From the NCBI GenBank assembly GCA_041739665.1, contig JBGSNK010000015.1, positions 616-64,615 of the forward strand: 64,000 nt of DNA, written 5' to 3'. Origin of the DNA: Bdellovibrionales bacterium. GTDB taxonomy: Bacteria; Bdellovibrionota; Bdellovibrionia; Bdellovibrionales; JAGQZY01. Made by a program: the position numbers and the translations under genes. A model generated the notes under the pieces. It searched no databases, was not told where the DNA came from, and saw only the letters and a list, made by a program, of their open reading frames with translations. Of this stretch, positions 39,499 through 55,720 are shown piece by piece. Each line of letters starts with the position of its first letter. Within the stretch, counting starts at the first letter, position 1.

Positions 39499-40020
39499 AT
39501 GACCTATTTACTGCAGCAATTTTTTCAACTGGTGAAGCTTCTCAACTCCGAAACTGGCACAAAGCAAATCGCTTGGGGGGTTGCCCTTGGTTTCGTTCTT
39601 GGAATGACCCCCGCTTTTTCTCTGCAAACCGTGCTTGTATTTTTAGTTCTTCTCTTCTTTCGAGTTCAGATGGGGGCGGCTTTTGTCGCTGCTTTTTTCT
39701 TTAAATTTGTGGCTTTTTTGCTCGACCCCGTTTTTCATGGAGTGGGTTCATTTGTCCTCGAAATTCAAGCCCTGAAACCTCTCTACACTCAGCTCTACAA
39801 TATGCCCATAGTTCCCTGGACTCGCTTCTATAACTCGATTGTGATGGGTTCAGGAGTGCTCTCAATTTTGTTAACACCTTTTGTTTTTGTGGCAACTTTA
39901 GTTGCAGTTCAGAAATATCGCAAAAGTGTTTACGATCGTTTTAAAGACTCTAAATTTTTTAAAGCCCTTAAAGCCACCTCTTTCTACAAATGGTATGTGA
40001 AGTACAATGACTACAGCTAA
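39499..40020 (+). CDS. Small DUF2062/TIGR03546-like membrane protein
   Basis: ..TGTKQIAWGVALGFVLGMTPAFSLQTVLVFLVLLFFRV.. matches the DUF2062-like pattern as I recall it. Overlaps the next gene by 14 nt. Confidence 0.5.
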   Translation: MTYLLQQFFQLVKLLNSETGTKQIAWGVALGFVLGMTPAFSLQTVLVFLVLLFFRVQMGAAFVAAFFFKFVAFLLDPVFHGVGSFVLEIQALKPLYTQLYNMPIVPWTRFYNSIVMGSGVLSILLTPFVFVATLVAVQKYRKSVYDRFKDSKFFKALKATSFYKWYVKYNDYS

Positions 40021-41938
40021 AACCTCTACTGAAAAAAAACCAAAAGCCAAAGGACCTCTGCGCATTGAGGCCCTTGTTCCCCTAACTCTTGTCCTTGTAC
40101 TTTTAGGCGCTTATTTTAAGTATTTCTTTGATTCCCATTTACGCCAGGGTCTCGAGTTTGGCGCCACCTATGCTCATGGGGCCGAAGTGAACGTTGGCGA
40201 CTTACAAACACTTTTCCTTGAGCCCTCCATTCGAATTCGCAATATCGAGATCACCGACAAATCTGACCCAACTCTCAATATTATCAAAATTGGCGAAATC
40301 AAGTTGCAGCTTTTATGGGACGCTTTACTCAGAGGCAAGTTTGTCATCCCCGAGTCGTCTATTTTAGATATCCAAGCTAAAAACAAACGCAGACGCCCTG
40401 GTCGCATCTTGCCGCCAAGCAAATCGGCAGGTTCAACAGGTGCTGTCAACCAAGCGGCCCAAGAAACCTTGGGGAAACTGAAAGAGAAAAATGAGTCGAA
40501 CCTGTTGGGCGATATCTTTTCTGTAGCTGGTGGCACCAACTACAAAGACCAACTTAAAAATCTGGAAGGCCAAATACAAACCCAAGTTAAGATCAAAGCA
40601 TTGGGTGACGAGTTGAAACTAAAAGAAGTGGAGTGGAAAAAGCGCATCGATGCCCTCCCCGATGATAGCGAAATCAAGCAATTGTCAAAAAAAGTCGAAG
40701 GCTTAAAACTTGACACCAGCAATCCTAAAGCCATCCAAGCCTCTCTTAAGGAAATCGACAGTGTTTATAAAGAGGCGCGCGCTAAATACAAAAATCTTGA
40801 GGAAGCTAAAAAAATCCTAGATCAAGACCTAAAAAAATACCAAAGTGAATACAAGGGACTGGATCAATTGATCAAACAGGATATTGAAGCTCTCTCGGCC
40901 AAACTCAATATTCCCTCGTTAGATCCTGAGGAAATTAACAAGATGTTACTTGGGTCCCTTGTCGCCAATCAGCTGGGGAGTTTGTTGAAGTACCAAAATT
41001 TGGTTCGCGAATACATGCCGAAGAAATCAAATGAGGCAAAAGAAAAAAAACAACTCACCCCCCGTGAGCGGGCCGAAGGGGTTAACTACACTTTTGCTAA
41101 AGGGAAAAGCTATCCCCGCTTTTGGCTCAAAAAGGCTAAAATCAGTTCGGACTCCAAACAAGGGGAAGCCGGCGACATCGAAGGCACTTTACAGAATGTA
41201 ACCAACAATCCGCGCCATTTGGGGCTACCCGCCACGCTGGATTTCAAAGGGGGCTTTCCGCACCAAAATATTTTCGATGTGAAAGGCAATGTGACAATCG
41301 ATCACACCAGCGAAGCACCCGTGGAAAAAGGCACATTCAGTGTGGGTTCTTTTCCCGTACATAAAAATACTCTCAGCCAATCCCAAGATCTTGAGCTGGG
41401 TTACAACAGTGCTCTCGGTTCAAGTACAATTGGCTTTGAAATAAAAAATGAGCAGATAGAAATCAACTCGAATTCGCTTTTTTCTAAAGTGGATTATTTT
41501 GCTAGTGCTAAGGACAAAAATGTGGATCGTCTGCTTAATGCGGTGGTGCAAGATCTCAATGACCTGACCTTAAATATTAAGGCCCAAGGCTCTTGGGATA
41601 AGTTGAGACTAAACATCAATTCCAATCTAGGGGATCGTCTGGTCCGTGCTATCAAAACCCAGGTAGAAAACGAAATTCGCAAAGCTCGACAACAAGTCGA
41701 AGAACATGTTCAAGCTATGGTAGGAAACGATAAGGCTAAGCTGGATCAGGAAGTGCAAAAGATTGAAAAGCAATTAGGCGTTTCTTTGAAAAGTCGGGAA
41801 GATGCGGTCAAGTCGGTCGAGTCAGCCGTTGATAAAAAGAAAAAAGAATCCACTCAACAGCAAAAAAAGCAAATCGACAAATTAAAAAAAGAAGGCCAAA
41901 AGAAGGCCAAAGAGCTCTTAAAAGGCATCAAATTCTAA
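40007..41938 (+). CDS. TIGR03545-like large envelope protein (N-terminal TM, coiled-coil middle, Lys-rich tail)
   Basis: One N-terminal TM (IEALVPLTLVLVLLGAYF). Long K/E-rich heptad-like middle region. Size and pairing with the small upstream membrane protein fit the TIGR03545/TIGR03546 gene pair. Confidence 0.5.
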   Translation: MTTAKTSTEKKPKAKGPLRIEALVPLTLVLVLLGAYFKYFFDSHLRQGLEFGATYAHGAEVNVGDLQTLFLEPSIRIRNIEITDKSDPTLNIIKIGEIKLQLLWDALLRGKFVIPESSILDIQAKNKRRRPGRILPPSKSAGSTGAVNQAAQETLGKLKEKNESNLLGDIFSVAGGTNYKDQLKNLEGQIQTQVKIKALGDELKLKEVEWKKRIDALPDDSEIKQLSKKVEGLKLDTSNPKAIQASLKEIDSVYKEARAKYKNLEEAKKILDQDLKKYQSEYKGLDQLIKQDIEALSAKLNIPSLDPEEINKMLLGSLVANQLGSLLKYQNLVREYMPKKSNEAKEKKQLTPRERAEGVNYTFAKGKSYPRFWLKKAKISSDSKQGEAGDIEGTLQNVTNNPRHLGLPATLDFKGGFPHQNIFDVKGNVTIDHTSEAPVEKGTFSVGSFPVHKNTLSQSQDLELGYNSALGSSTIGFEIKNEQIEINSNSLFSKVDYFASAKDKNVDRLLNAVVQDLNDLTLNIKAQGSWDKLRLNINSNLGDRLVRAIKTQVENEIRKARQQVEEHVQAMVGNDKAKLDQEVQKIEKQLGVSLKSREDAVKSVESAVDKKKKESTQQQKKQIDKLKKEGQKKAKELLKGIKF

Positions 41939-42031
41939 GACCTTGGGCCGGTCCTTGACTAGGCCCCCACACCTAATACTGCTACTCTAAAAGAGTCAGT
42001 TTCTCTCACTTTTGACGAGGTATTCAGTTTG

Positions 42032-42847
42032 ATGACAGTCTCTAAATTATTTTGGGCCTTTGTGATTATTAGTTGGCCGCTTCAAATTTTTTCACAAGAA
42101 ACCACTCGAAGCGGTAGCGGCAGTTTTTTTTCACCCCGCCAAACGCAAGAAACAGAAATGGATAGACTGCGCAAAAAAATTATGTGCGCATTTGAAGAAA
42201 ATAAACTTCCGAAAGACAATGAATCAAATCAACGCAAGCGGGCCGAGTACCTATCCCGACACTTAAGTGAAATCTTCTCGCGCCTTGAGCCGGACTGGAC
42301 AACCCTCGAACTGCAACACAGCCTGGCCCAGGCTGTTGCTGAAACGGGAAACCTTCGTCACGTGACTGAACAACCCTCTAAATACAGATCTTCTCGTTCA
42401 AAATACAAAGGGCGTGGCTTGATTCAAACAACTCACAAAGCTAATTATGCACAACTGGCAGGTTGCGCTCAGACCATCTCTAACAATCCCATTCCTCAGT
42501 CTATTTCGAGAGAAGCCTTGGCTCGCGCCCCTCGCCTAATGAGCAGCGAACTGGTTCGAAATCCAGATCAGGCTATGAGTGAGCGAACTCAGGGTGGACA
42601 ATTTCTAAATGCCGCAAGCTTGGTTTGTTATATGGTCAATACCTCAGAAAGACACAATCGCTTAAAAAAGGCCATGAGCTGCGCCAACCCGCCTTGTGTT
42701 CGAGAAGTGGGTGTCGCTGTGAACCGTGGCCCAGGTGCTCTGGGTAAAGGTCGCAAGCCGTTGGGCGATGCCGAAAGGGTTCGAGCTTTCTGCCGCATGA
42801 ACTCTTGCTTCGGAAACCAAGGTCGTTGCGCTACGGGAGGTCGTTAA
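42032..42847 (+). CDS. Secreted glycoside hydrolase family 19 (chitinase/endolysin-like muramidase) protein
   Basis: Signal peptide. LAQAVAETGNLRHVTEQ (two catalytic Glu context) and YKGRGLIQTTHKANY (GH19 GRGxIQxTxxxNY motif). Confidence 0.75.
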   Translation: MTVSKLFWAFVIISWPLQIFSQETTRSGSGSFFSPRQTQETEMDRLRKKIMCAFEENKLPKDNESNQRKRAEYLSRHLSEIFSRLEPDWTTLELQHSLAQAVAETGNLRHVTEQPSKYRSSRSKYKGRGLIQTTHKANYAQLAGCAQTISNNPIPQSISREALARAPRLMSSELVRNPDQAMSERTQGGQFLNAASLVCYMVNTSERHNRLKKAMSCANPPCVREVGVAVNRGPGALGKGRKPLGDAERVRAFCRMNSCFGNQGRCATGGR

Positions 42848-43595: not shown

Positions 43596-46500
43596 TTAGG
43601 GACTGAGCTTGAGCTTTCTGACGATGTGATTTTCAGTATCGCTGATATACAAATCACCATTGGCATCAAAATTAAGACCTGTCGGTCTTAACAAAGTAGC
43701 CGATGTTCCCGCCACACCTTCTTGACTAAAATCAAAGGGACTTCCCCCTGTTGCAATAGCTTCGATGCGCCCGGCGACGGTGCTCACCACACCCGTTGTC
43801 GTGTTGAAACATCTAACGTTATGACGGGCTCTTTGGGCGTAACAAAGACGACTCCCATAAAAGGCCAAACCTGTTGGTTGGTTACAGCGAGCTGAAGACA
43901 CTAAGACATTCTCGGAGTCACTGCCCGAAGTTCCACCTAGGCAGCCTACAGTCGAGACTTGATTGGGATTCACTGTAACGGTTCCTATCGACACAGGGCT
44001 TGCCGTTTTATTCCAATAGTAAATACGATGATTTCCCATATCGGAAATAAAAAGATTACCTAACCCATCGATTGCAATATCTCGAGGTTGATTGAAGTAA
44101 GCTGAACCCTCTGGAAAACTCAATGGAACTGGAGCTGGCCCGGGGAATGCCGTCGCACTAGTCGTTTCACATGTGCCCAGAACAGATGACAATGTTCCAC
44201 TGGCGTCCACATATTTGATACAATGATTAAGACTGTCGACAATATACATTTCAGGGTCGCCATTGTTATTCACAAACTTAACTGAGTTCGGATATCTTAA
44301 GCGAGACGCTAAGGCGGGTCCACTGGCATCGTGCCCTGCTCCCGAGACCCAATCACCAGCAACTGTTGAGATACGATTGTTTTGTATAAATTGTCCAAGA
44401 TAATTTTTATTAGAACCACTACGATTCCAAATGCGCACATTATGTCCATAGGGATTCAATTGAGCCAAACTGCCATCTTCCCAAATATCAAAACCGTTTG
44501 TAATCGCATTAGTCGCATTCCACGTGGATTGAAGGGGGGCATTATTAGGGAAATCATTATCTAAAGTCGGAGAGGCTGCTGGTCCTGAGCCCACCACGGA
44601 TTTCATACGTCCATATTTGTCCACAGAGCGTATTCGCTGATTGTTTTGATCGGCAATAAATAGTATCTGATTGGTGTTATCAAAAACTAAGCCTGATGGG
44701 AAATCCATAAGATGCTGGCTCACAGGGAGTTCGATGTCTCCTAAGAAACCACTCTTTCCATCTCCGCTGCCTAAGAAGTCACTCACCGCTCCCGTGATAA
44801 TGTTGATATCACGTAATCTATAATTGGAGTAATCCGAAACCACTAAACGATTGGAATTGTTTCGATCTATAGTAATGCCGCTGGGTTGATTGAATCTTGT
44901 CAAAGCAATTCCGGCATTCGAGCCGTTGTAACCGTTTGTCGCCTGGTTGATTCGCCCCAAAAGACCATTATTAATGGTGTTGCCATCAATTGTGATGGGG
45001 GCCGGAGAGTTGTTTGCTAGAACTATGCTCCCTCTGTGTAGGTCCGTAATGAAAATTGTATCCAAGTCCTTCACCCAAATACTTGAGGGTTGTGACACGG
45101 GTGTGGCCAAGGGGTTACCCGACAGAGGGGTAGCTCCGTTGGCTCCATTGCCGATGATCGTTGCCATCATTCCAGGAGCAACAATGATCTCGCTCGGGTT
45201 TCCAGACCAAAAGGTAATCGGATTTAGAGTGGTATTGATAAAGCGAACAAGGCGACGGCTGTACAAAGTGATATAAATTCCATTGGCATCCACAAAAATG
45301 CCCATGGGTTGACCTGTACCACCAGATGTGGGTGCCACATTGTTACCGGTGTTGTTATCAGAACCTGTTCCCGCAATAGTGTAAGCCAAGTCGCTGGCCA
45401 AATCCCACCGCTTGACACGATGGTCATTCAAACATGTGACATATAAATTGCCAGAATAATGGAACAATTCACGAGGACGACGGCAACGCTCTAAGAAAGC
45501 AGGCTGTCCGTTAATGTGGCTCGTTCCCCCACCCATTCCAACGAAGATAACACCGGACGCATCGACATATTTAATTAAATCACCTAAATACTCCGTGATA
45601 TAAAGTCGATCAAAAGCGTCGTCGTACCAAAGACCTCTAGGTTCATATAAGGGTGAGGCCAGAGCCGCAATACCAGCACTTCCACTTTCTGCAGAACCGG
45701 TCCCAGCAATCACCTGAATTGTTCCAGGCTGAATCGTCACGCCCACACGGGTCACGGCCGAAGCAGTGTTGTTCCAATACCAAACCACGTGATTGTCCAG
45801 ATCTGAAATAAAGAAGTTACCTAAAGCATCTTGGACATGGGACCCTGGGCGAAAGCGCAATGGATAATTCACATCAGTGGGTGAAAAACCACTTCCTTTA
45901 TTCGCGCTTCCAGCAAATGTGCAAATTTGACCTGTTTGCAACTCGTTACATTTCTGAGGAAACCAATTGACCTCTCCACTCCAACTAAAAGATGTAGACT
46001 TGGTTCCGTCGCTGACTTCAACCGTCACAAGATTGGTACCTACAATATCTGCATGTCCCGTTAAATACCCGGTCGCCCCAAGCCCACTTAGATGAGGGGA
46101 TGAAGCACCATTGAGTTTCCATTGAAAAGTTAAAGTGTCATTATTGGGATCCGTCGCTAAAGCCATAAAGCTCACAGTGGAGTCCACAGAAACTTTTGGA
46201 ATTCCGGAGGTCAAACTGCTTAAAACAGGAGGGCCGTTGACTTTAACGATCCACGCATTTTCAATGGTGGCCTTTTCATCTGACAAGGTAACGACCAGAT
46301 TGTGTTCGCCAATAAGAGCTTCAGTTGCTGTGAATGTAAACTGGTTCACCGCTGCTATGGCCTGACCGTCGAGCTTCCATGAATAATTAACTGTTCTGGG
46401 AAAGACGGCAACACCGGTAATAAAAAAATCAACCGATTGACCAATCTCGACAATGATCTCGCCCGCGTCTGGTAAACGACTGGTGATCTTTAACTCGGTG

Positions 46501-46616
46501 GCATTGGTGGGTCCACCGCCACCAGATAATATATCTAAAGAGGATCCCCCCTCTTGCTTACAGGAAGTTAGAAAAAGGAATATCAATAGGGGAATATAGA
46601 GCTTTGATATATTCAT
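43596..46616 (-). CDS. Large lipoprotein: N-terminal Ig-like domains plus multiple NHL-repeat beta-propeller blades (paralog 1)
   Basis: Lipobox ..LFLTSC. Two ~90-aa Ig/PKD-like units. Recurrent NHL motifs (e.g. FNQPRDIAIDGLGNLFISDMGNHRIYYW, LLRPTGLNFDANGDLYISDTENHIVRKL). Confidence 0.8.
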   Translation of the reverse strand: MNISKLYIPLLIFLFLTSCKQEGGSSLDILSGGGGPTNATELKITSRLPDAGEIIVEIGQSVDFFITGVAVFPRTVNYSWKLDGQAIAAVNQFTFTATEALIGEHNLVVTLSDEKATIENAWIVKVNGPPVLSSLTSGIPKVSVDSTVSFMALATDPNNDTLTFQWKLNGASSPHLSGLGATGYLTGHADIVGTNLVTVEVSDGTKSTSFSWSGEVNWFPQKCNELQTGQICTFAGSANKGSGFSPTDVNYPLRFRPGSHVQDALGNFFISDLDNHVVWYWNNTASAVTRVGVTIQPGTIQVIAGTGSAESGSAGIAALASPLYEPRGLWYDDAFDRLYITEYLGDLIKYVDASGVIFVGMGGGTSHINGQPAFLERCRRPRELFHYSGNLYVTCLNDHRVKRWDLASDLAYTIAGTGSDNNTGNNVAPTSGGTGQPMGIFVDANGIYITLYSRRLVRFINTTLNPITFWSGNPSEIIVAPGMMATIIGNGANGATPLSGNPLATPVSQPSSIWVKDLDTIFITDLHRGSIVLANNSPAPITIDGNTINNGLLGRINQATNGYNGSNAGIALTRFNQPSGITIDRNNSNRLVVSDYSNYRLRDINIITGAVSDFLGSGDGKSGFLGDIELPVSQHLMDFPSGLVFDNTNQILFIADQNNQRIRSVDKYGRMKSVVGSGPAASPTLDNDFPNNAPLQSTWNATNAITNGFDIWEDGSLAQLNPYGHNVRIWNRSGSNKNYLGQFIQNNRISTVAGDWVSGAGHDASGPALASRLRYPNSVKFVNNNGDPEMYIVDSLNHCIKYVDASGTLSSVLGTCETTSATAFPGPAPVPLSFPEGSAYFNQPRDIAIDGLGNLFISDMGNHRIYYWNKTASPVSIGTVTVNPNQVSTVGCLGGTSGSDSENVLVSSARCNQPTGLAFYGSRLCYAQRARHNVRCFNTTTGVVSTVAGRIEAIATGGSPFDFSQEGVAGTSATLLRPTGLNFDANGDLYISDTENHIVRKLKLSP

Positions 46617-46756: not shown

Positions 46757-49744
46757 TTAGTCACTTAATTTTATTTTACGAACAATATGATTGTATGTGT
46801 CGCTCACGTACAAGTCTCCATTTGAGTCAAAGGTCAAGCCAGAGGGGTTTTGCAAAGTGGCCTCGTTGCCAGGAATACCTTCTTGGGAAAAATCAAAAGG
46901 CGAGCCCGCCCCAGGGGTGGCTTCGTTGCGGCCCGCTACGGTTTTTAAAATTCCGGTCGAGGTATCCATGCAACGGACATTATGGCGCCCTGCCTGAGCA
47001 TAGCAAAGGCTATTTTCATGGAGAGCTAAGCCGATAGGAGTGTTACAGCGAGAGGATGTTGCCAAAATATTTTCTGCCGTACTCCCCGCAGTTCCCCCCA
47101 TACATGCAATAACTGCAATATGATTGGGATTCACCGTAACAGTCCCAATTTGTCGACTGACAGCACTTCTGTTCCAGTACCAAATATGATGATTCACACT
47201 ATCCGAGATAAAAAGGTTACCATGGCTGTCAATAGCCACATCACGCGGACGATTAAATTGAGCACTTCCCTCTGGCACATTTAGACCTGGGTTACCGGCC
47301 GTTCCACAGTCCCCCACGGCTGTAGTCAACTCTCCAGTGCTATCCACATGGCGAATGCAATGATTCAAAGAATCCACTATGAACATTTCCATTTGACCGG
47401 CGTTATTAAAAAATTTTGCAGAGTTTGGATATGTCAGCTGGGCTGCTAATGCAGGTCCCTCTGGGCCATCGCCAGCGCCAGAAACCCAATTACCTGCAAT
47501 CGTAGAGACTCGATTGTCTTGTAAGAATTGACCAAAGTAGGATTGATCCGAGCCACTGCGGTTCCATATACGAACATTGTGCCCATAAGAGTTGAGCTGT
47601 AAAAGGGATCCGTCCTCCCAAATATCAAATCCGTTTAGATAAGAGTTCGTTGTGTTAAAATTACTGCGTATTCGAGTGCTATTGGGAAACTCGTTATCGG
47701 GTATGGGATCTCCAGCAGTTATCGATCCGACAGCAGTTTTGACAAGACCATAACGATCAAGCACACGGACTCTATGATTATTTTGATCTGCTACAAATAA
47801 GAGTTGGTTCTGATTATCAAATGCCAAACCGGTTGGAAAATTTAAGAGGTGTTGAGAAGTCGGAAGTTCAAAGTCTCCCATATTCCCATTTTTTCCGACC
47901 CCAGAGCCCAAAAAATCTGTCACTTGGGCTGTCGACACATTGATATCGCGAAGTCTAAAATTATTATAATCAGCTATAATGACACGTTCTGGATTTAAAA
48001 TATCTAGAGATAAATGATAAGGGCTACTGAATCGAGTGGCGTTCACACCTGCCGTGGTTCCATTATAGCCAGCCGTGTTGCTATTGATCCGACCCATTTG
48101 ACCTGCCACAATTGTTAGGCCGTCAATATTGATATCCACACCAGAATTGTTGGCTGCGACAATATGGCTGCGTTGTTGTCCAGAAATATAGATAACATCA
48201 TCTGGACTCACCGAGATTCCCGAGGGTCTAGCGACCGGAGCACTCAAGGGATCTGCACTAGCAGGTGTGTTTCCGTTCCCTCCATTGCCGACAATGGTGG
48301 CCATAAGACCAGGCCCCACAGTTATCTCATCGGGGTTACCTGACCAAAATGTTTTAGGAACAAGACTCGTGTTGATAAAGCGAACACGCCTCTGGTCCCA
48401 CAGGGTGATGTAAATCCCATCGTCATTGGTAAATAGACCATAGGCCTGACCTGTCCCTCCCGATGTGGGTGCCACATTGTTTCCATTTGTATTGTTGGCA
48501 CCCGTTCCGGCAACTGTATAGGCCTGATCCGAACTTAAATCCCAACGTTTGACTCTATGGTCGGTATAGCAAGTCACGTAAAGTTGGTCGTTACGAAGTG
48601 AAATTCCATTTGGATTGCGGCAACGATGGGTGAAAGCCGAGGCTCCATCCACATGAGATGTGCCTCCTCCCATTCCAATAAAGACGACCCCAGAGCTATT
48701 TACGTATTTCACTGTGTGACTGGACCATTCGGATATAAAAAGTCGATCCGAGCCACCATCATACCAAAGACCTCTTGGGCCATTTAAAGCAGACTCTAGA
48801 GCAGAAAGACCTGCACTTCCACTAGCAGCTTCCCCTGTACCTGCGACAACTTGAATAACGCCTGCGGGGATCACTCGCCCAATACGACTCACTGGATTTG
48901 CAGTATTATTCCAGTACCAAACAACATTATTATCCAAATCAGAAATAAAGAAGTTCCCAAGACTGTCTTGAAAGTGACTGATTGGACGAAAACGCAATGG
49001 AAAATCAACATTTGTTGGAGAAAAACCGCTTCCTTTGTTTGCAGAACCAACGACAGTACAAATCTCTCCTGTCTCAAGTTCATTGCAAGCTTGAGGAAAA
49101 AAATTGACTTCCACATCCCAAGAGTGGCTAGCCGTTTGAGTGCCATCGTCGACTTCAACAGTAACAGTATTGAGTCCGACTATACTCTCGTGTCCGGTGA
49201 GTTGTGCACTGCTTGTTGTCCCCAGCAAATGAGTGGAAGTCGCTCCATTTAATAACCATCGGTAGTTTAAGCTATCATTATTGGGATCCGAGGCCACAGC
49301 ATTTAAACTTAAAGTCGATCCCACAGATATTTTTTGTTGACCCTCTTGCTGACCAGATACTACAGGTGGTCCATTCACTTTTATTTCCCAAGTGTTTGAG
49401 ATCGTTGCCTGATCATCAGAGAGGGTGGCAATAAGAGTATGATTGCCAATGTTTTCTTCGAGACCAATGAAGGTGAAATCATTGATAGCATTGACAAGAG
49501 CCCCATCAAGAGTCCAGGAATAAGTTACAGTTCTGGGAAAAACGGCCACACCTGTAATAAAAAATTCCTGACTCTCTCCAATTTCAACAATGACCTGACC
49601 TTGATCCGGAATGCGACTCGTGATTTCAAGCTCTGTGGCATTGGTCGGTCCACCACCGCCAGTTAATATATTAAGAGAGGTGCTTCCGTCCTGTTTACAG
49701 GACAAAAGCAAAAATGCCCCCAAATATAAAGCTAAAAATCTCAT
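46757..49744 (-). CDS. Large lipoprotein: N-terminal Ig-like domains plus multiple NHL-repeat beta-propeller blades (paralog 2)
   Basis: Lipobox ..FLLLSC. Collinear with paralog 1 along its whole length, and about two-thirds identical by eye over the first ~110 aligned residues. Same NHL motifs (FNRPRDVAIDSHGNLFISDSVNHHIWYW). Confidence 0.8.
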   Translation of the reverse strand: MRFLALYLGAFLLLSCKQDGSTSLNILTGGGGPTNATELEITSRIPDQGQVIVEIGESQEFFITGVAVFPRTVTYSWTLDGALVNAINDFTFIGLEENIGNHTLIATLSDDQATISNTWEIKVNGPPVVSGQQEGQQKISVGSTLSLNAVASDPNNDSLNYRWLLNGATSTHLLGTTSSAQLTGHESIVGLNTVTVEVDDGTQTASHSWDVEVNFFPQACNELETGEICTVVGSANKGSGFSPTNVDFPLRFRPISHFQDSLGNFFISDLDNNVVWYWNNTANPVSRIGRVIPAGVIQVVAGTGEAASGSAGLSALESALNGPRGLWYDGGSDRLFISEWSSHTVKYVNSSGVVFIGMGGGTSHVDGASAFTHRCRNPNGISLRNDQLYVTCYTDHRVKRWDLSSDQAYTVAGTGANNTNGNNVAPTSGGTGQAYGLFTNDDGIYITLWDQRRVRFINTSLVPKTFWSGNPDEITVGPGLMATIVGNGGNGNTPASADPLSAPVARPSGISVSPDDVIYISGQQRSHIVAANNSGVDINIDGLTIVAGQMGRINSNTAGYNGTTAGVNATRFSSPYHLSLDILNPERVIIADYNNFRLRDINVSTAQVTDFLGSGVGKNGNMGDFELPTSQHLLNFPTGLAFDNQNQLLFVADQNNHRVRVLDRYGLVKTAVGSITAGDPIPDNEFPNSTRIRSNFNTTNSYLNGFDIWEDGSLLQLNSYGHNVRIWNRSGSDQSYFGQFLQDNRVSTIAGNWVSGAGDGPEGPALAAQLTYPNSAKFFNNAGQMEMFIVDSLNHCIRHVDSTGELTTAVGDCGTAGNPGLNVPEGSAQFNRPRDVAIDSHGNLFISDSVNHHIWYWNRSAVSRQIGTVTVNPNHIAVIACMGGTAGSTAENILATSSRCNTPIGLALHENSLCYAQAGRHNVRCMDTSTGILKTVAGRNEATPGAGSPFDFSQEGIPGNEATLQNPSGLTFDSNGDLYVSDTYNHIVRKIKLSD

Positions 49745-49859: not shown

Positions 49860-49931
49860 ATTAGACTCTTGTCCTGTAAAGAAAATCAGTAACTTATGTC
49901 GAAAGAGAACTATCAAATAGGAGTTTTTAAA

Positions 49932-50558
49932 ATGATGAAGACAATTCTAGTTCTCCTTTTTCTCAACTCGTTAATTGCTTCTTGCACAAGTATGCAGATG
50001 AAAATTGAGTCTGAGCCATCCGAGGCCACAGTTTATCTAAAAGATGGACAAAAAATTAAAAAAATTGGCGTCACACCTCTCAATATTAACAGTGAACAAT
50101 ATAACGATGTTGAAAATTTCCATTTAAGAATAGAAAAAGAGGGTTACAAATCCCATGAAATTATTGTCGATAAGCGGTCTGTCACAAGTCGAGCTAAAAT
50201 TTTTGCATCAATGAATAAAATGGATTTAGAAAACAATGCTTCAAATAACGCTAGCACAGGTAGCTCTAATCCAATTTCACTTATTCAAGCTCAGCAACAT
50301 CGCGGGCTCGCTAGTATTCAATCACTTTTATTACAAAGCCAATACGCCCAAGCAGAAGTGATAGCACGACAATTCGTTGTCGAAAATCCATTCTCTTCAG
50401 TGGGCTGGAGTCTTTTAGGAAACGCTTACCTTTTGCAAAACAAAAGTTCATTGGCCTTAGAAGCCTACCAAAAATCCTTGGAATACGAACCTGAAAACGA
50501 AGACACTCGACGCATTGTCGAACGTCTTAAAAATGACACTCCAAAAAGGAGTCGATAG
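49932..50558 (+). CDS. Lipoprotein with a PEGA domain and C-terminal TPR repeats
   Basis: AGGAG upstream of the ATG at 49932. Lipobox LIASC. PEGA pattern (IESEPSEATVYLKDG..GVTPL..). TPR-like GWSLLGNAYLLQNKSSLALEAYQKSLEYEP. Confidence 0.7.
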   Translation: MMKTILVLLFLNSLIASCTSMQMKIESEPSEATVYLKDGQKIKKIGVTPLNINSEQYNDVENFHLRIEKEGYKSHEIIVDKRSVTSRAKIFASMNKMDLENNASNNASTGSSNPISLIQAQQHRGLASIQSLLLQSQYAQAEVIARQFVVENPFSSVGWSLLGNAYLLQNKSSLALEAYQKSLEYEPENEDTRRIVERLKNDTPKRSR

Positions 50559-51350
50559 ATGTACAATTTTATTGGCTTTATAATATCAATCGCATTCGTA
50601 AAGTTTGCCCTTGGTCACCTCAGTGTCAACACTAGCTTTTTTGTTGACGTTGTCGCTTTGTTAGTTGTTTTTGGTGGCACTTTCGGTGTCATGGTGATTT
50701 CGTTTCCGCCCAAATTTTTATTTCGATTTTTTACAGCACCAATGAAAATGATAGTCTCCAAAAGTCCCAACTTTGTTCAAGCGATAGAGTCACTAATTAA
50801 GGCTTTGCAAGACGATAAAGATCGCAAACACAACTTAAAGAAACTGAGCGAGCAAAAAAATACCGATACATTTTTAAAAGAGGGTATCGAGCTCTATTTA
50901 ATGGATATGCCCCTTAAAGACTTTAAAAATATTATGACAGAAAGAATTTATCGATCTCGGCAAAGAGAAGAGGATAATATCAACCTTTTTCGTCGTTTGG
51001 CTAAGTATCCACCGGCTTTTGGATTGGTTGGAACGGTTTTGGGTCTAATCAGTCTGATGCGGTCTGTTGGTGAAGGCGCAAATGCATCTACAATTGGTTT
51101 GAATATGGCTCTTGCCTTAACAGCCACTCTTTACGGTTTGGCCTTTTCAAATTTTGTACTAGCTCCTATTGCTGAAAACTTTCAAAGTGTCGCAGATGAG
51201 AAAAAGGTATTTCAGGAGTTGTTACTTGAGGGACTTCTCCTTTGTTATGATGGCTCGTCACCTCTCACAGTTCAAGAGATGCTCAACTCGTACGTCGAAC
51301 CTCACAAACGAATAGATATATTAGGTGTTAATCAAAAGGAATCTGCATAA
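50559..51350 (+). CDS. motA: MotA/PomA-type proton-channel stator protein
   Basis: Starts directly after the upstream TAG. 2+2 TM helices with a long charged cytoplasmic loop. AKYPPAFGLVGTVLGLI and LYGLAFSNFVLAPIAENF contain the conserved MotA prolines. Confidence 0.8.
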   Translation: MYNFIGFIISIAFVKFALGHLSVNTSFFVDVVALLVVFGGTFGVMVISFPPKFLFRFFTAPMKMIVSKSPNFVQAIESLIKALQDDKDRKHNLKKLSEQKNTDTFLKEGIELYLMDMPLKDFKNIMTERIYRSRQREEDNINLFRRLAKYPPAFGLVGTVLGLISLMRSVGEGANASTIGLNMALALTATLYGLAFSNFVLAPIAENFQSVADEKKVFQELLLEGLLLCYDGSSPLTVQEMLNSYVEPHKRIDILGVNQKESA

Positions 51351-52073
51351 GTGGAACACAATAAACTGCGCAACATTCAAAGCTCAGAAGAAGTTGAAAA
51401 CAACTGGGCGATTAGCTATGGAGATATGATTACCCTCCTACTTGGCTTTTTTGTTATCTTCTTTAATATTAAGAATGAAACAATGAATTTGCAGCTAGTT
51501 CATAAAGATATCACCAAGTATTTTGAGACAAGCGATGGTCGAGGTCCTTCGGCCATTGCAGGTACGGGCGGCAAAGAACAACAACGCCCTGGAACTCTCA
51601 CTGAAACAATTGCAGCAAAATTAAAAGTGAAAGCAAATATCGATGGCGAAAAAATAATCATAGAGTTTCCCAATACTAGCTTCTTTGATTCCTCAGCTTA
51701 TGAGCTCAATGAAACTGGAAAAGCGGCTTTAACAGAGTTTTCCAATGCCATCAAAGATCACTTAGGATTATTTAGACTTGTTGTGCGAGGGTACACAGAC
51801 ATTAAACCCGTCAACCCTGGTGCGCGCTATAAGGACAATCTAGAGCTTTCTGCCTTTCGATCCATTTCTGCTATTCGCTACCTGGCTAACCAAGGTATTC
51901 GCATGGAAAATATGAGAATTGCAGGTTTTGGAGAATCCTCTATGAGCCGTGAGAGCTTGGACGTCAAAGATTTAAGCCAACAACGGAAAGTTGTAATTGT
52001 TATTGAACCTCTGGATCACACCGAGCGAGCATTTAACAAGTTAATGGACAATAAAACTGAGGTGACTCAATGA
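51351..52073 (+). CDS. motB: MotB-type stator protein with an OmpA-like peptidoglycan-binding domain
   Basis: GTG immediately after the motA stop. WAISYGDMITLLLGFFVIFF (channel Asp in a MotB-like TM). C-terminal OmpA-like region (F.SSAYEL.., LVVRGYTD, NLELSAFRSISAIRYL, GFGES). Confidence 0.8.
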   Translation: MEHNKLRNIQSSEEVENNWAISYGDMITLLLGFFVIFFNIKNETMNLQLVHKDITKYFETSDGRGPSAIAGTGGKEQQRPGTLTETIAAKLKVKANIDGEKIIIEFPNTSFFDSSAYELNETGKAALTEFSNAIKDHLGLFRLVVRGYTDIKPVNPGARYKDNLELSAFRSISAIRYLANQGIRMENMRIAGFGESSMSRESLDVKDLSQQRKVVIVIEPLDHTERAFNKLMDNKTEVTQ

Positions 52074-53740
52074 AATATCTAGTCCTTTTGATATCTCTTT
52101 TACTTGTCGCGCCCGTGCATGCATCTCGGGTGATTGAGATTGAAGACTATTACTCAAATAAGGTCACAGACTTTATTAAATCGCGCTACCCTCGTGTTGC
52201 ATTTTCAATTTCTGTCAAAGCAATCGTCGAAGAAGAGGTTAACAACAGAAATCAAAAGCAAGACACTCTAGCTCTACCCTATATGGATGGTATGGAATCA
52301 AAGGCTATTGGTTTTTGGGAACAAAAAGACATTCCATTGGGTACTTTAATTTCATATGTGAAAAGTATTTCAGTAAAAGTTGATATTGACAGAAATTTTA
52401 CATTAGAAGAAATTCAACAGTTTAAATCAGAAATGAGTGAATATTTAAAACTCTCAGATGTTTATGACCGTTTAGAAATAAGCCAAAGACAATGGCAAAG
52501 CCCTTGGTCTATTGAAAATAGTGGAAACCAAATCGTCCTCATAATGATTGGTATCCTTCTTTTAGCTATTGTCTTTTTTGTGGTTTTCCAAAGTGGGATC
52601 CGAAGCCTTATTAAGGGCCTTGCACAACCTCTTAGCGAAATTGGAAAATCTGCTGAGAACGTTGCCAACACGGCTTCCGCTGTTCGCCCCTCTTCTAATA
52701 ATTCTCAGTCTGGTTTTGCTGGCTCTAACTCACAACACCTGGATGTCCAAAATTCCAAGCAAATTATCTCTGAAATCAAAATGATGTCGTCCTTTATTGG
52801 CAATCCAAATCCTGACTTAATCCGTAAAATCGAGAAATTGGGTCAAGAAGATCCACAGGCGATGGGTGCTCTTTTAAAAGAAGTAGAAGTTGAAGATTTA
52901 AAGTCTTTAGTTTCATGGGGACGTGGCGAATGGTGGAGACAAGCCATTACACAACCTGGCTCTCTATCTGAGAATTCCTTTCGCTTTTTTAATGAAATAA
53001 CAACTCTCTCAAGAAAGAGTCAGTTGTTACCTAATAATAGTGAATTTGATGACTTCCAAAAAATTATTGCAAGACTCAGTATCAAAGAGTTTGGTCAGTT
53101 GTTGGAAGGTGCTAGCTTTGAACAAGCAGAGCCTATTTTAAGGCTGACTCCGCAAGAAGTTCGAGTCTCTGTAGGTAAATATTTGTACCCCGGCCAGTGG
53201 GCACAGTTGCTCAAAGATTCAGGAAAAGGTAAAAAATCCGTGCTTTTGGCCGATGTAAAGAAAAAATACAGCGATAAAGCGCTGAAGATATGTCCATTGA
53301 TAGAAAGTGAGCTCATTGAACAGTATTTCGAGGACGCTGAGATGGTCTCTTTCCTAGATCACAATTCAACAAAAGATGAACGAGAAGTTTACCGAGCCTT
53401 GGATGAGACTTCATGGATCAAACAAAATAGACGCCCCTTCTATAGTATTCTTCAAGAAGACAAAAATATCCTAGAGAAACTAGTTTCAGAAACTCATTTA
53501 GATCAGTGGGCTTTAGCATTTACATGCTGCGATTCAGATGAACAAGAACAACTTTTGGTTTTATTTACAGAAAGACAAAGATTTTTATTAAAGAATGCTA
53601 AAAAACAGTATCTTTTACAGCCACCACAACAGCAAGATGTGGCCTTTGCTAAAAGAGAAATCATAAATATTTGCAATCAAATTAAACAGTTTGAAAAGAG
53701 CTATCCGAGTGCTGAAATCAATAATGAAATTGCTGCTTAA
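52070..53740 (+). CDS. Bitopic membrane protein: signal peptide plus periplasmic FliF/YscJ-like domain, one TM, cytoplasmic FliG-like (middle + C-terminal) domain
   Basis: ATGA overlap with motB. TM IVLIMIGILLLAIVFFVVF followed by basic residues. DLIRKIEKLGQEDPQAMGALL resembles the FliG ..DLIRDEHPQIIA.. region. ..ILEKLVSETHLDQWALAFTCCDSDEQEQLLVLFTERQRFLL.. resembles the FliG C-domain ..IQRLLQEVDSESLLIALKGA...REKFLRNMSQRAADIL. Confidence 0.5.
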   Translation: MKYLVLLISLLLVAPVHASRVIEIEDYYSNKVTDFIKSRYPRVAFSISVKAIVEEEVNNRNQKQDTLALPYMDGMESKAIGFWEQKDIPLGTLISYVKSISVKVDIDRNFTLEEIQQFKSEMSEYLKLSDVYDRLEISQRQWQSPWSIENSGNQIVLIMIGILLLAIVFFVVFQSGIRSLIKGLAQPLSEIGKSAENVANTASAVRPSSNNSQSGFAGSNSQHLDVQNSKQIISEIKMMSSFIGNPNPDLIRKIEKLGQEDPQAMGALLKEVEVEDLKSLVSWGRGEWWRQAITQPGSLSENSFRFFNEITTLSRKSQLLPNNSEFDDFQKIIARLSIKEFGQLLEGASFEQAEPILRLTPQEVRVSVGKYLYPGQWAQLLKDSGKGKKSVLLADVKKKYSDKALKICPLIESELIEQYFEDAEMVSFLDHNSTKDEREVYRALDETSWIKQNRRPFYSILQEDKNILEKLVSETHLDQWALAFTCCDSDEQEQLLVLFTERQRFLLKNAKKQYLLQPPQQQDVAFAKREIINICNQIKQFEKSYPSAEINNEIAA

Positions 53741-54284
53741 AGCAATTCTTATTTCATTTATAATCCCCACTTGGGCTTTTGCTGGCCAAGGGCAGGTGAC
53801 AGCCAAGCTAGGTACTTGGGCCTTTGATGTATCGGGCAATAGCAGTTCTGCTGAATCGGCTTCTGGTATTGGAGCTTATGCCTTTGAAGTGGGTTATAGT
53901 TTTTTTCCGCAAATTATGGTTGTCTTTGGATTTAACCTTGTTATGAGCGAGCTGGTTTCAGGAAGTGCAGGTTACGGTCTGGATCTTGGGGCCCGTTACT
54001 ATCCCCTATCTGATTCGGGCACTTACCAACAATCTACAGATTTTACAGACATCACGATTCAAGAAAAATGGCGTCCCTATATAGGCTTGGCCATGCGTCA
54101 GCGTCTTTTTGGTCTAGCCCTGTCGACCAGCTATTTTGGTCCTGGAATCAGTTTAGGTTTGGATTACTCTCTCACTTCAAAATGGTTGCTCACTTCAGAA
54201 CTTCGCTATGATTATCTTTATGGCCAAGGTGATACTTTGGCCGTCCAAACAAATATATTATTTGGTTTTGGCCTAGAGTTCTGA
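53724..54284 (+). CDS. Small outer-membrane beta-barrel protein
   Basis: Signal MKLLLKAILISFIIPTWAFA. Alternating-hydrophobic strands and a C-terminal ..LFGFGLEF (terminal Phe). 17-nt overlap with the upstream gene. Confidence 0.65.
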   Translation: MKLLLKAILISFIIPTWAFAGQGQVTAKLGTWAFDVSGNSSSAESASGIGAYAFEVGYSFFPQIMVVFGFNLVMSELVSGSAGYGLDLGARYYPLSDSGTYQQSTDFTDITIQEKWRPYIGLAMRQRLFGLALSTSYFGPGISLGLDYSLTSKWLLTSELRYDYLYGQGDTLAVQTNILFGFGLEF

Positions 54285-54423: not shown

Positions 54424-54747
54424 GTGAGCAATCGTCGCCTGGTTTGGTCCGATGAAGACGGAGATCAGCGTAAAAATAAAATGACTACAGAAACAGTTGT
54501 GAATATGAAGGGACTTGAGCTCAAAGTGCGTCGGCTGACTTCTGGCAAAGGTCGAACTGTCGTTGAGATCAGTGACCTGCCGAACAACAAAAAATGGTGC
54601 CAAGAACTTGCACGAGATCTAAAGAAAAAACTCGGCGTTGGAGGATCGTACAAGGACGCCTATATTGAAATTCACGGCGAGAAACTCGATGCAGTAACCC
54701 AGTTCCTCGATAGCAAACAGCTCAAATGGAAAAAGATCGGCGGCTAA
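54424..54747 (+). CDS. yciH: SUI1/eIF1-family translation factor (YciH-like)
   Basis: GTG start after AAGGAG. ..RRLTSGKGRTVVEISDL.....LARDLKKKLGVGGS......IEIHGE... is the SUI1 fold signature. Confidence 0.8.
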   Translation: MSNRRLVWSDEDGDQRKNKMTTETVVNMKGLELKVRRLTSGKGRTVVEISDLPNNKKWCQELARDLKKKLGVGGSYKDAYIEIHGEKLDAVTQFLDSKQLKWKKIGG

Positions 54748-54858
54748 AGGTCCGGGCCGGCACAGGTGTTGCTCTTTATCAGTCCTGAAGCCCTATTGGG
54801 CCCAAGACTGGGACAAAATGACTCACTTTTAGGGCCCTCTGAGACAAAGGAGTGAAGA

Positions 54859-55260
54859 ATGTCTAAACCAATCCGCGATTTCATGACCCCCATGCCCCAC
54901 ACCATTGGACAAGATATTGAGATAGGTAAAGCCAAGGACATGATGGCTGAATACGGCTGTCACCATTTGCCAGTCCTAAACGGCGGTCATTTGGTCGGAA
55001 TTGTAAGCGATACAGATATCCGCACTTTGAAAAAAATAGCCGATTCAGACAGCTTAAAAGTAGAGGATATCATGACTGAAGATCCAGAAATTGTCCCACC
55101 CCACAAAGACGTCTTCCAGGTGGCGATGCTTATGCACCAAAAGAAGATCGGAAGTGTTATTGTGTCAGCTAGCGATGATTCTCCATGGGGCATATTCACC
55201 GCCACTGATGCTCTACGATATTTGACTGAAGACAAACATTTAAATCTTAATACACTTTAA
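54859..55260 (+). CDS. CBS-pair domain protein
   Basis: Two CBS motifs (..HHLPVLNGGHLVGIVSDTDI.. and ..IGSVIVSASDDSPWGIFTATD..). Confidence 0.8.
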   Translation: MSKPIRDFMTPMPHTIGQDIEIGKAKDMMAEYGCHHLPVLNGGHLVGIVSDTDIRTLKKIADSDSLKVEDIMTEDPEIVPPHKDVFQVAMLMHQKKIGSVIVSASDDSPWGIFTATDALRYLTEDKHLNLNTL

Positions 55261-55276
55261 CAAAAAAGGAGTGTTT

Positions 55277-55720
55277 ATGTTTGCAAAACCTCACTGGAAT
55301 ATTGCCGTGGTCGTGGACAGAAGCCAAGCTCGCTTTATCAACCGCAAGCCATTCAATATATTTGCCACTTTTGTCAACGAATTGGGACGCACTAAAAATC
55401 GCGAGTTCACAGATGACAAGCCTGGACTCAGTCGTGCTAAGGGAGGCGGCCCCTCGAGCACTCACAGTTTAGGAAGTGAAAAAGACCCCACCGCTGAAGC
55501 CGATAAACAGTTTGTGCATGCTCTTTGTGATCGCATTGACAAACTTTGCTACGAAACAAATTTACAACAGTTTTTAATTGTGGCTGAACCTAAAATGAAA
55601 GGCTTGATTCGAGCCAAGCTTAGTTCACAATCCTTAGATAAAAGCTTGTGGATGGACAAAGACCTAGCACACTTTAACAAGCACGAACTCAAAGAAAAAC
55701 TCAAAAACTATGAAGCTTAA
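55277..55720 (+). CDS. Host_attach family protein (protein required for attachment to host cells; eRF1/Pelota-like fold reported)
   Basis: ..AVVVDRSQARFI.., DDKPGLSR, ..FLIVAEPKMKGLIRAKL..DKDL.. follow the family pattern (VVADGxKARxF / DxPGR / LVLVAPPxxLGxLR / KDL). The ATG at 55277 follows AAAGGA. Confidence 0.6.
   Translation: MFAKPHWNIAVVVDRSQARFINRKPFNIFATFVNELGRTKNREFTDDKPGLSRAKGGGPSSTHSLGSEKDPTAEADKQFVHALCDRIDKLCYETNLQQFLIVAEPKMKGLIRAKLSSQSLDKSLWMDKDLAHFNKHELKEKLKNYEA

Follow-up and report, generated by a model that had tools for sequence, protein, structure and literature searches.

A FliG-like membrane protein encoded with a flagellar-type stator in Bdellovibrionales

FliG is known to us only as the soluble ring that receives torque in the flagellar motor. 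Here we analyse a gene of a Bdellovibrionales bacterium (open reading frame 52070–53740, forward strand) whose 556-residue product carries a FliG-like arm on a single-pass inner-membrane protein and is encoded directly behind its own motA and motB. The gene lies in a 64,000-nucleotide stretch of contig JBGSNK010000015.1, the whole of which is called the window; all positions are those of the window. The locus encodes a probable rotor–stator pair of FliF-, FliG- and MotAB-type parts, with a protein architecture and an operon that have not been described.

The flagellar motor (FliF, FliG and MotAB or PomAB) is the natural comparison. The window protein shares with it a torque domain with an R281-type residue, a colinear arm of FliG length, and a predicted split ring-building motif (RBM) followed by a transmembrane helix, in the order of RBM3 and TM2 of FliF. 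Both also come with a stator that carries a plug, an Asp in its channel and a domain for binding peptidoglycan; here it is of flagellar type and encoded next to the fusion. In contrast to the flagellar rotor, one polypeptide stands in place of two, and a signal peptide replaces TM1. FliF has RBM1, RBM2 and a beta-collar of about 105 residues, whereas the window protein has neither of these RBMs and an insert of 46 residues. FliG is soluble and encoded among genes such as fliF and fliH, whereas the window protein has a signal peptide and a transmembrane helix. It also lacks the FliM-binding EHPQR motif, the MFXF motif (R-P-P-F-Y instead) and the conserved D288/D289 pair of FliG. Unlike at flagellar loci, its partners are a PEGA-TPR lipoprotein, a small barrel and NHL lipoproteins, and no export, rod, hook or switch genes lie nearby.

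Fusions of FliF to FliG have been reported before. A natural one occurs in the Chlamydiaceae, with about 330 amino acids, two transmembrane segments, two RBM-like domains and only a FliG_M-like tail (Bergeron 2016, PeerJ, PMC4768692). Chlamydia is described in the same paper as non-flagellate, with few flagellar genes (PMC4768692). The chlamydial fusion lacks a torque domain, and chlamydiae lack MotAB; a connection with the injectisome (SctQ) has been proposed. Like it, the window protein joins a shortened FliF-like periplasmic part to a FliG-like cytoplasmic part, with no complete flagellum in the organism or the gene context. The window protein differs in having a single RBM and a single transmembrane helix, a FliG-like arm of full length that includes FliG_C, and a stator of its own. 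Engineered FliF–FliG fusions of Salmonella and Vibrio form rings and rotate (Francis 1992 and Thomas 2001, as cited in PMC4768692; PMC6079021). Such constructs (PDB 8z4d and 8z4g) indicate that joining FliF and FliG covalently does not prevent rings from assembling and rotating. Unlike the window protein, they were built in the laboratory from FliF and FliG at full length and sit in a complete flagellum.

A survey of MotAB diversity divides the homologs into flagellar stators and generic ion transporters, and in the passages searched FliG figures only as the conventional rotor partner (PMC12505986). Full-text literature searches for FliG-like, non-flagellar or fused rotor proteins returned no match to the module. 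An earlier reading of this DNA from its letters and open reading frames (the sequence-only reading) had called the architecture undescribed. This holds for the module itself, which we did not find in the literature, but not for FliF–FliG fusions in general, which are known from Chlamydiaceae and from engineering.

A FliG-like arm behind a transmembrane helix

The gene starts with ATG and has a GAGGTGA ribosome-binding site 8 nt upstream. A Kyte–Doolittle scan of the protein finds only two hydrophobic segments, at residues 1–24 and 150–182. The first corresponds to a signal peptide (MKYLVLLISLLLVAPVHAS; residues 1–19, 52070–52126) with a short hydrophobic core. Cleavage probably falls after VHA, and A18, S19 and R20 are invariant in 19 close relatives. 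The second corresponds to a transmembrane helix at about residues 152–176 (52523–52597), which AlphaFold2 (AF2) models as a helix of residues 152–194. Directly behind the segment comes IRSLIK, in keeping with the positive-inside rule, and this places the C-terminus, a region of about 375 residues, in the cytoplasm. The sequence-only reading had proposed just this layout: a cleavable signal, a single transmembrane segment with Arg and Lys behind it, and a long cytoplasmic region. It had also placed the gene directly after motAB, and motA (50559–51350) and motB (51351–52073) do precede it, with a 4-nt ATGA overlap between motB and the fusion gene. Its observation on this open reading frame is confirmed, and its interpretation as a FliF–FliG chimera is supported; we regard the domain assignments and the synteny of the module as solid.

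The C-terminal domain is FliG-like at the levels of both sequence and fold. It covers residues 454–545 (53429–53704) and opens with R-R/P-P-F-Y. The window protein scores 22.8 bits against Pfam FliG_C (PF01706; E = 1.1e-4), 0.5 bit short of the cut-off of 23.3. FliG_C is matched in 13 of the 19 close relatives (best E = 1.1e-10), and members of the wider family exceed the 23.3-bit gathering score (P0019, 42.1 bits; P0015, 41.7; P0036, 33.3; P0004, 31). When a profile of the 19 relatives was searched against 177,635 PDB sequences, the only significant matches (E < 0.05) were FliG chains (E = 0.002–0.015), led by the Vibrio FliF–FliG fusion construct 8z4d. With a profile of 137 members FliG was again the only significant match, at E-values down to 5.8e-5.

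AF2 was run twice on single chains, once on the full protein with the 19-sequence alignment and once on the periplasmic part alone. In the full model the predicted local distance difference test score (pLDDT) averages 76, with values of about 85–92 across residues 222–545 and about 90 for residues 400–545. All 13 top matches in a Foldseek search of this model against the PDB were FliG. Full-length FliG chains aligned over 320–350 columns, among them that of A. aeolicus (3hjl) across 350. The FliG_C-like domain alone matches 1qc7 (chain 1qc7_B) with a TM-score of 0.85 and a root-mean-square deviation (rmsd) of 2.0 over 87 columns. Against the FliG_C chain of the MotAB–FliG complex 8ucs (8ucs_H) the TM-score is 0.76.

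Between the membrane and this domain, residues 222–453 (52733–53428) form a predicted helical, ARM-like region at the positions of FliG_N, FliG_M and ARM_C, modelled at the same high pLDDT of about 85–92 and matched by Foldseek. Equivalence to FliG_N and FliG_M is seen here at the level of the predicted fold only. A helical domain at residues 226–319 sits at the colinear FliG_N position. MgtE_N is weakly matched in 12 of the 19 relatives, and weak matches to it in relatives fall at about residues 331–405.

For hhalign, the E. coli FliG sequence was confirmed, and the alignment supplied the residue register. A greedy alignment is colinear with E. coli FliG 22–329 at low significance (E = 0.015). 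The register bears on two parallels that the sequence-only reading had drawn by eye. In one, ILEKLVSETHLDQWALAFT...TERQRFLLKN was set beside the torque-helix region of E. coli FliG. HMMER and hhalign give the same register, and at the family level the likeness exceeds chance, with FliG_C matched in most close relatives and the PDB profile matching only FliG. In the other, NPDLIRKIEKLGQEDPQAMGALL was paired with ADLIRDEHPQIIATIL. This one fails, as hhalign sets E. coli FliG 131 onwards at about residue 349 and not at about 260. EDPQAMGALL (around residue 260) is therefore an earlier ARM-like repeat and not a homologous EHPQ site.

The torque-helix equivalent is at residues 499–516 (FTERQRFLLKNAKKQYLL; 53564–53617) in the register of HMMER and hhalign. 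R502 corresponds to R281 of E. coli FliG, N509 to D288 and A510 to D289. The R281-equivalent is basic in 136 of 137 family sequences (Lys in 107, Arg in 29). At the D288-equivalent, the Asn of the window protein is replaced by Glu in 81 of the 137. Of the charged torque-helix residues, whose conservation the sequence-only reading had suggested checking, the basic one is kept and the acidic D288/D289 pair is not. The EHPQR FliM-binding motif is not conserved; the EHPQ positions read L-S-I-K in a low-confidence hhalign register. The MFXF hinge is not kept either. Its aligned positions read R-R-P-F(-Y), the family form R-P-P-F-Y is nearly invariant, and R454, P456 and F457 are each conserved in at least 90% of the family. 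By these diagnostic residues the protein retains a torque domain and lacks the features linked to FliM binding and directional switching.

A split periplasmic domain

The periplasmic part, residues 20–140 (52127–52489), is predicted to fold in the order alpha1-beta1-insert-beta2-alpha2-beta3. Both AF2 runs give a helix at residues 20–39, a strand at 45–52, a 46-residue insert, a strand at 99–106, a helix at 112–126 and a strand at 134–139, with pLDDT of 85–93 for the core elements. The alpha-beta-beta-alpha-beta pattern that had been recognized by eye thus recurs in the same order in both models. In the predicted structure the motif is split between strands 1 and 2, as it is in RBM3 of FliF. 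RBM1, RBM2 and a full beta-collar are absent from the models, in which the periplasmic part of about 120 residues consists of a single RBM and the insert.

The insert (residues 53–98; 52226–52363) is modelled partly at low pLDDT. Most residues that do not vary in the periplasmic part fall within it (LPY, FW, D, G and Y), namely L69, P70, Y71, F82, W83, D87, G91 and Y96 in the 19 relatives. Outside FliG_C, conservation is strongest in the periplasmic domain and this insert. Its partly low confidence in a monomer model would fit a segment that folds only upon oligomerization or partner binding.

For the domain model, Foldseek gives its highest probabilities (0.98–1.0) to RBM3 chains of FliF in many MS-ring structures, superposed over 46–58 residues with rmsd of 1.8–2.0 and about 20% identity. 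The model comparison with FliG and FliF suggested by the sequence-only reading therefore came out in favour of both likenesses, closely for FliG_C and with high probability at weak E-values for RBM3. FliF RBM3 and SpoIIIAG carry a collar insert between RBM strands 1 and 2 (PMC4768692). The window domain resembles both in being interrupted by a conserved insert at that point. Unlike theirs, its insert is much shorter, predicted with low confidence and without detectable sequence similarity. The coincidence of the split with the collar-insert site makes the likeness to RBM3 more specific. So does the order of domain, transmembrane helix and FliG-like arm, which is that of RBM3, TM2 and the FliG-binding tail in FliF. 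On these models the periplasmic domain is plausibly FliF-like, on weaker ground than the FliG_C assignment.

Stator, operon and family

Gene 2 of the operon (50559–51350, forward strand) encodes a MotA/PomA-like stator A subunit of 263 amino acids, with a Pfam MotA_ExbB score of 75.9 bits. All nine of its PDB matches are flagellar stators (E = 5e-27 to 1e-17), including Paenibacillus MotA1, PomA, C. sporogenes MotA and B. subtilis MotA. Its best NCBIfam matches are PomA, MotP and MotA, with E = 1.5e-36 for PomA against 4e-7 for TolQ and 3e-4 for ExbB. Gene 3 (51351–52073, forward strand) encodes a MotB-like B subunit of 240 amino acids, in which a plug and the Asp of the channel (WAISYGDMITLLL) are combined with a peptidoglycan-binding domain of the OmpA type. 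Both Pfam scores exceed their cut-offs (MotB_plug, 34 bits; OmpA, 40 bits), and the transmembrane Asp is retained in an alignment to B. subtilis MotB. Judged by its sequence, the adjacent stator is of flagellar type and not of Tol/Exb type. It is a divergent member rather than an ortholog of a named stator, since the NCBIfam equivalog cut-offs for PomA, MotA and MotB are missed (126 versus 341 bits for the MotA gene; 83 versus 283 bits).

The R88/K89 pair of PomA is kept as RK in the window MotA, and at least one basic residue is present there in all six close homologs. We rejected a strict charge pairing between MotA and FliG, as the MotA loop is too variable across the family for reliable equivalents of R90 and E98. 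Close MotA homologs conserve a charged cytoplasmic motif, TERIYRxRQR[DE]EE, at residues ~107–121 (50877–50921). PomA has nothing comparable at this site (KKDIALTDERHTQ), and more remote MotA members retain only E-R-[IL]. The motif could be a family-specific contact surface for the fusion protein.

MotA (51333–51350) and the fusion protein (53723–53740) also share a similar short, Ala-rich C-terminal end. The window MotA ends in ...KESA and the fusion protein in ...EIAA. In relatives MotA ends in KESA, KEAS, NESA, ENAA, EAAA or LEAS, and the fusion protein in EAAA, EASA, AQAA, DMAA or QSAA, the final residue being Ala in at least 90% of the 137. Such ends are reminiscent of ssrA-like -AA degradation tags or of a common docking motif.

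The operon has five genes, with the fusion gene as gene 4. Gene 1 (49932–50558, forward strand) encodes a PEGA and TPR lipoprotein with the lipobox LIASC, which exceeds the Pfam cut-offs for both domains (TPR_1, 31.7 bits; PEGA, 22.5 bits). Its open reading frame opens at 49896, and the probable start is the ATG at 49932 behind an AGGAG site. Gene 5 (53724–54284, forward strand) encodes a probable outer-membrane beta-barrel of 186 amino acids with a signal peptide and a C-terminal ...GLEF. It matches Pfam OMP_b-brl over its full length below the cut-off (E = 3.4e-4), and a gene call begins at its ATG. The junctions are, in order, TAG directly followed by ATG, TAA directly followed by GTG, a 4-nt overlap and, between genes 4 and 5, a 17-nt overlap. 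Searching the PDB with the TPR lipoprotein and with the barrel returned designed TPRs and noise only.

Divergent from the operon lies a gene for an NHL-repeat lipoprotein of 995 amino acids (46757–49744, reverse strand; lipobox LLSC; Pfam NHL, 96.6 bits). It is followed on the same strand by a paralog of 1006 amino acids from the same homolog cluster (43596–46616; lipobox LTSC; 70.4 bits). The first is probably an accessory or output component of the module. Both tandem proteins are Ig-like in their N-terminal regions and carry numerous NHL repeats (teneurin-like NHL). NHL homologs beside the module reach 3930 amino acids, some with PKD- or cadherin-like domains.

We compared 12 independent loci, down to about 22% identity with the window protein. 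All 12 encode MotB, the fusion protein and the barrel, and all 11 with enough flank encode MotA with the TPR lipoprotein directly upstream of it. A homolog of the NHL-repeat giant adjoins the operon at nine of the 12 in varying orientation, and at two of these (L009 and L010) it follows the operon immediately on the same strand. The 12 loci have no other conserved neighbours of the module. Flagellar genes (export, rod and switch) were not found in the scanned regions of the window or in the flanks of the 12 loci.

A word-indexed homolog search with the window protein found 19 relatives, all nameless or called hypothetical. Repeating it with a 137-sequence alignment added no others. A HMMER search of 1.84 billion cluster representatives (50% identity) gave 210 hits, 154 of them at E <= 1e-30, and nearly all of these clusters are 540–600 amino acids long and match end to end. 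Seven matches of 314–401 amino acids span only the cytoplasmic part. We considered soluble, split versions of the family and rejected them for the three of the seven that were looked up, which all lie at contig ends and are truncated gene calls. Where organism names are given, they are metagenome-assembled genomes (MAGs) of Bdellovibrionales, Pseudobdellovibrionaceae, Bdellovibrionia, Bdellovibrionaceae and Oligoflexales; the 30 clusters looked up yielded names from two Bdellovibrionales MAGs and one Oligoflexales MAG. The family is wholly unannotated, its members being called 'hypothetical protein', and has no NCBIfam model.

Other features of the window were recorded in passing. G+C content is 0.39 over the operon (50001–54000) and 0.43–0.46 in its flanks, with a slightly positive GC skew over the operon. 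No sigma-54 consensus was found in the window, and a scan for sigma-70 promoters and terminators showed no enrichment relative to shuffled sequences. Downstream of the barrel gene (54424–55720, forward strand) are genes for a SUI1/eIF1-like protein, a tandem-CBS protein and a Host_attach protein of baeRF family 12 (bacterial release-factor-like). These were rejected as module parts, as they are not conserved beside it at other loci. A Zorya system (ZorAB with effectors) was also rejected. PADLOC matches only MotB, to ZorB models, which reflects generic MotB homology; it finds no ZorA, and the other four proteins are unmatched. Upstream of the NHL genes, three forward-strand open reading frames of 617, 643 and 272 amino acids (36328–38181, 40007–41938 and 42029–42847) lack any Pfam match at E up to 0.001, and the 643-residue one comes after a gene for a DUF2062 membrane protein. 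The rest of the scanned window is housekeeping (aconitase, topoisomerase VI, photolyase and ribosomal protein genes). The topoisomerase VI genes are adjacent on the reverse strand, subunit A (Spo11/Toprim) at 5631–6803 and subunit B (transducer and GHKL ATPase) at 6813–8714. Type IIB topoisomerases are uncommon in bacteria.

Rotor, transducer or regulator

The reading we favour, to which we give about an even chance, is that the fusion protein forms the rotor side of a compact envelope machine, coupled to MotAB and independent of the flagellum. From the observed domain identities and the conserved operon we infer that the stator probably contacts FliG_C. This is the most economical explanation, since the pairing of a flagellar-type stator with a FliG_C membrane protein is conserved and translationally coupled. 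Ion flow through MotA5B2 would turn the MotA pentamer, which would push the FliG_C torque helix with its conserved Lys or Arg at the R281 position. Should the RBM domains assemble into a ring, as those of FliF do, the entire membrane ring would rotate. Ring formation and rotation may occur, with somewhat less than an even chance in our estimate. If no ring forms, the force would pass to the single transmembrane helix and the periplasmic domain. In either case the envelope partners (TPR lipoprotein, barrel and NHL lipoprotein) would receive the work, which might for example move or load a surface protein. The conserved lipoprotein and outer-membrane barrel, with the NHL lipoproteins, imply an output in the outer envelope, for a ring and a transducer alike. 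Any closer naming of that output is a tentative guess at best. The motor may act on the NHL lipoproteins as its load or substrate. A bolder version, which we hold to be rather doubtful, is a stand-alone rotary motor without type III export, in which a fusion ring spun by its own MotAB drives surface NHL lipoproteins via the TPR lipoprotein and the barrel.

Several results weigh against the favoured reading. The profile check proposed by the sequence-only reading succeeded for FliG_C at the family level but not for the other domains: Pfam FliG_N (PF14842) is unmatched by the window protein, FliG_M (PF14841) is unmatched in every member checked, and YscJ_FliF (PF01514) and YscJ_FliF_C (PF08345) have no match at E up to 1. 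Alignments of the family to E. coli FliG by hhalign are weak (E = 0.009–0.036). They stayed so because the FliG homologs found are enterobacterial and 87–100% identical to one another, which leaves the FliG profile an effective number of sequences (Neff) of only 1.3. For the periplasmic domain, the FliF RBM3 matches have weak Foldseek E-values (0.03–0.07), to which OsmC-like and ribosomal S3 folds are comparable, and a profile of this part matches no PDB sequence at E up to 10. The domain alone is also too small to span the periplasm. At the torque interface, the acidic D288/D289 pair reads N509/A510, and across the 137 family sequences the D289-equivalent is nowhere predominantly acidic. E96, E97 and E99 of PomA are not kept in register in the window MotA. 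The canonical electrostatic pairs are thus only half present. Finally, none of the data point to a specific output, and all family members come from uncultured organisms.

The module can also be compared with other motors of the MotA/MotB class. In ExbBD-TonB, TolQR-TolA-TolB-Pal-CpoB, AglRQS-Glt and GldLM, as here, such a motor is combined with a single-pass partner, TPR proteins and beta-propeller or outer-membrane parts, and the gliding systems among them also have large surface adhesins. These other 5:2 motors differ in that they couple within the membrane or periplasm and have no FliG-like domain, whereas the window stator is PomA-like and bears a plug. This comparison motivates an explanation that we think unlikely, namely a non-rotary transducer of the TonB/TolA kind. 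One or a few copies of the fusion protein would sit beside MotA5B2 without a ring, and MotA would pull FliG_C as a handle. The conformational change would run through the transmembrane helix and the periplasmic domain to the TPR lipoprotein, the barrel and the NHL proteins, and serve tethering, transport or the activation of surface proteins. ExbBD-TonB and TolQR-TolA-TolB-CpoB indeed show the same pattern, in which genes for a 5:2-type motor accompany those for a single-pass protein and for partners in the outer membrane. In the Tol system TolB is a beta-propeller and CpoB a TPR protein, and the operon context here includes a TPR protein, with a faint match to tol_pal_ybgF (E = 0.018), and beta-propeller (NHL) lipoproteins. 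The weak RBM evidence also suits a protein that forms no ring. However, the coupling domain is FliG_C, whose sole known role is in a tangentially driven ring, and the stator, which has a plug and an anchor for peptidoglycan, is of flagellar rather than Tol/Exb type. The periplasmic domain is short and has no extended linker like those of TonB and TolA, and its best structural matches are the ring-forming FliF RBM3 chains.

We consider it quite improbable that the protein transmits no work and acts as a stator-binding regulator, decoy or assembly factor, whose tethered FliG_C parks MotAB or modulates flagellar stators. Bdellovibrio-type organisms have several motAB pairs, and the degenerate acidic pair of the torque helix might suit a non-productive binder. 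However, a role on the cytoplasmic side hardly explains the strictly conserved lipoprotein and barrel of the operon and the linked NHL gene, or a periplasmic domain and insert that are the most conserved parts outside FliG_C. A dedicated stator is moreover encoded in the same operon by overlapping genes.

A reduced MS-ring/C-ring protein of the flagellum itself, replacing separate FliF and FliG, would account for the FliF-like and FliG-like parts next to motAB, and engineered fusions do support flagellar rotation. We regard it as very improbable, since the protein lacks RBM1, RBM2 and the full beta-collar that would hold the export gate and rod, there is no EHPQR/FliM-binding site in the aligned register, and flagellar genes are missing from the scanned window regions and the flanks of the 12 loci.

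The notion that a generic MgtE_N/ARM helical repeat merely resembles FliG and stands beside motAB without functional meaning draws on the weak MgtE_N matches in relatives and on the half bit by which the window protein misses the FliG_C cut-off, and is largely refuted and barely credible, because FliG_C outscores MgtE_N in all members shown and passes its cut-off in several, no PDB match other than FliG reaches significance, the fold resemblance singles out FliG_C with a TM-score of 0.85, and the motAB synteny persists to about 22% identity. What the sequence-only reading had named as the outcome that would count against it, a generic ARM/HEAT or MgtE_N-only fold with neither torque helix nor ring-type periplasmic domain, is not what the models and profiles show.

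For the organism, the favoured reading of a rotor-side subunit makes the module a candidate motor for surface functions in Bdellovibrionota. A 2026 review lists the gliding motor of Bdellovibrio, its adhesins and force transmission as a major open challenge (PMC13104615). A link between the module and Bdellovibrio gliding is speculative. If the stand-alone rotary version were true, the module would be a new engine for surface motility or adhesin handling in Bdellovibrionota, and a living, minimal rotor–stator pair with a bearing on the origin of the flagellar motor. Naming the family would improve the annotation of the MAGs that carry it.

More broadly, the protein represents a natural, membrane-anchored FliG fused to a plausibly FliF-type ring motif, with its own stator and no export apparatus, rod or switch. 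If the proposed mechanism is true, it would be the simplest rotor–stator pair known and a tractable system for asking what MotAB minimally needs to turn something. The flagellar torque interface would then have been reused for another task in the envelope, and the intermediate-like architecture of the fusion would be of use to models of flagellar evolution.

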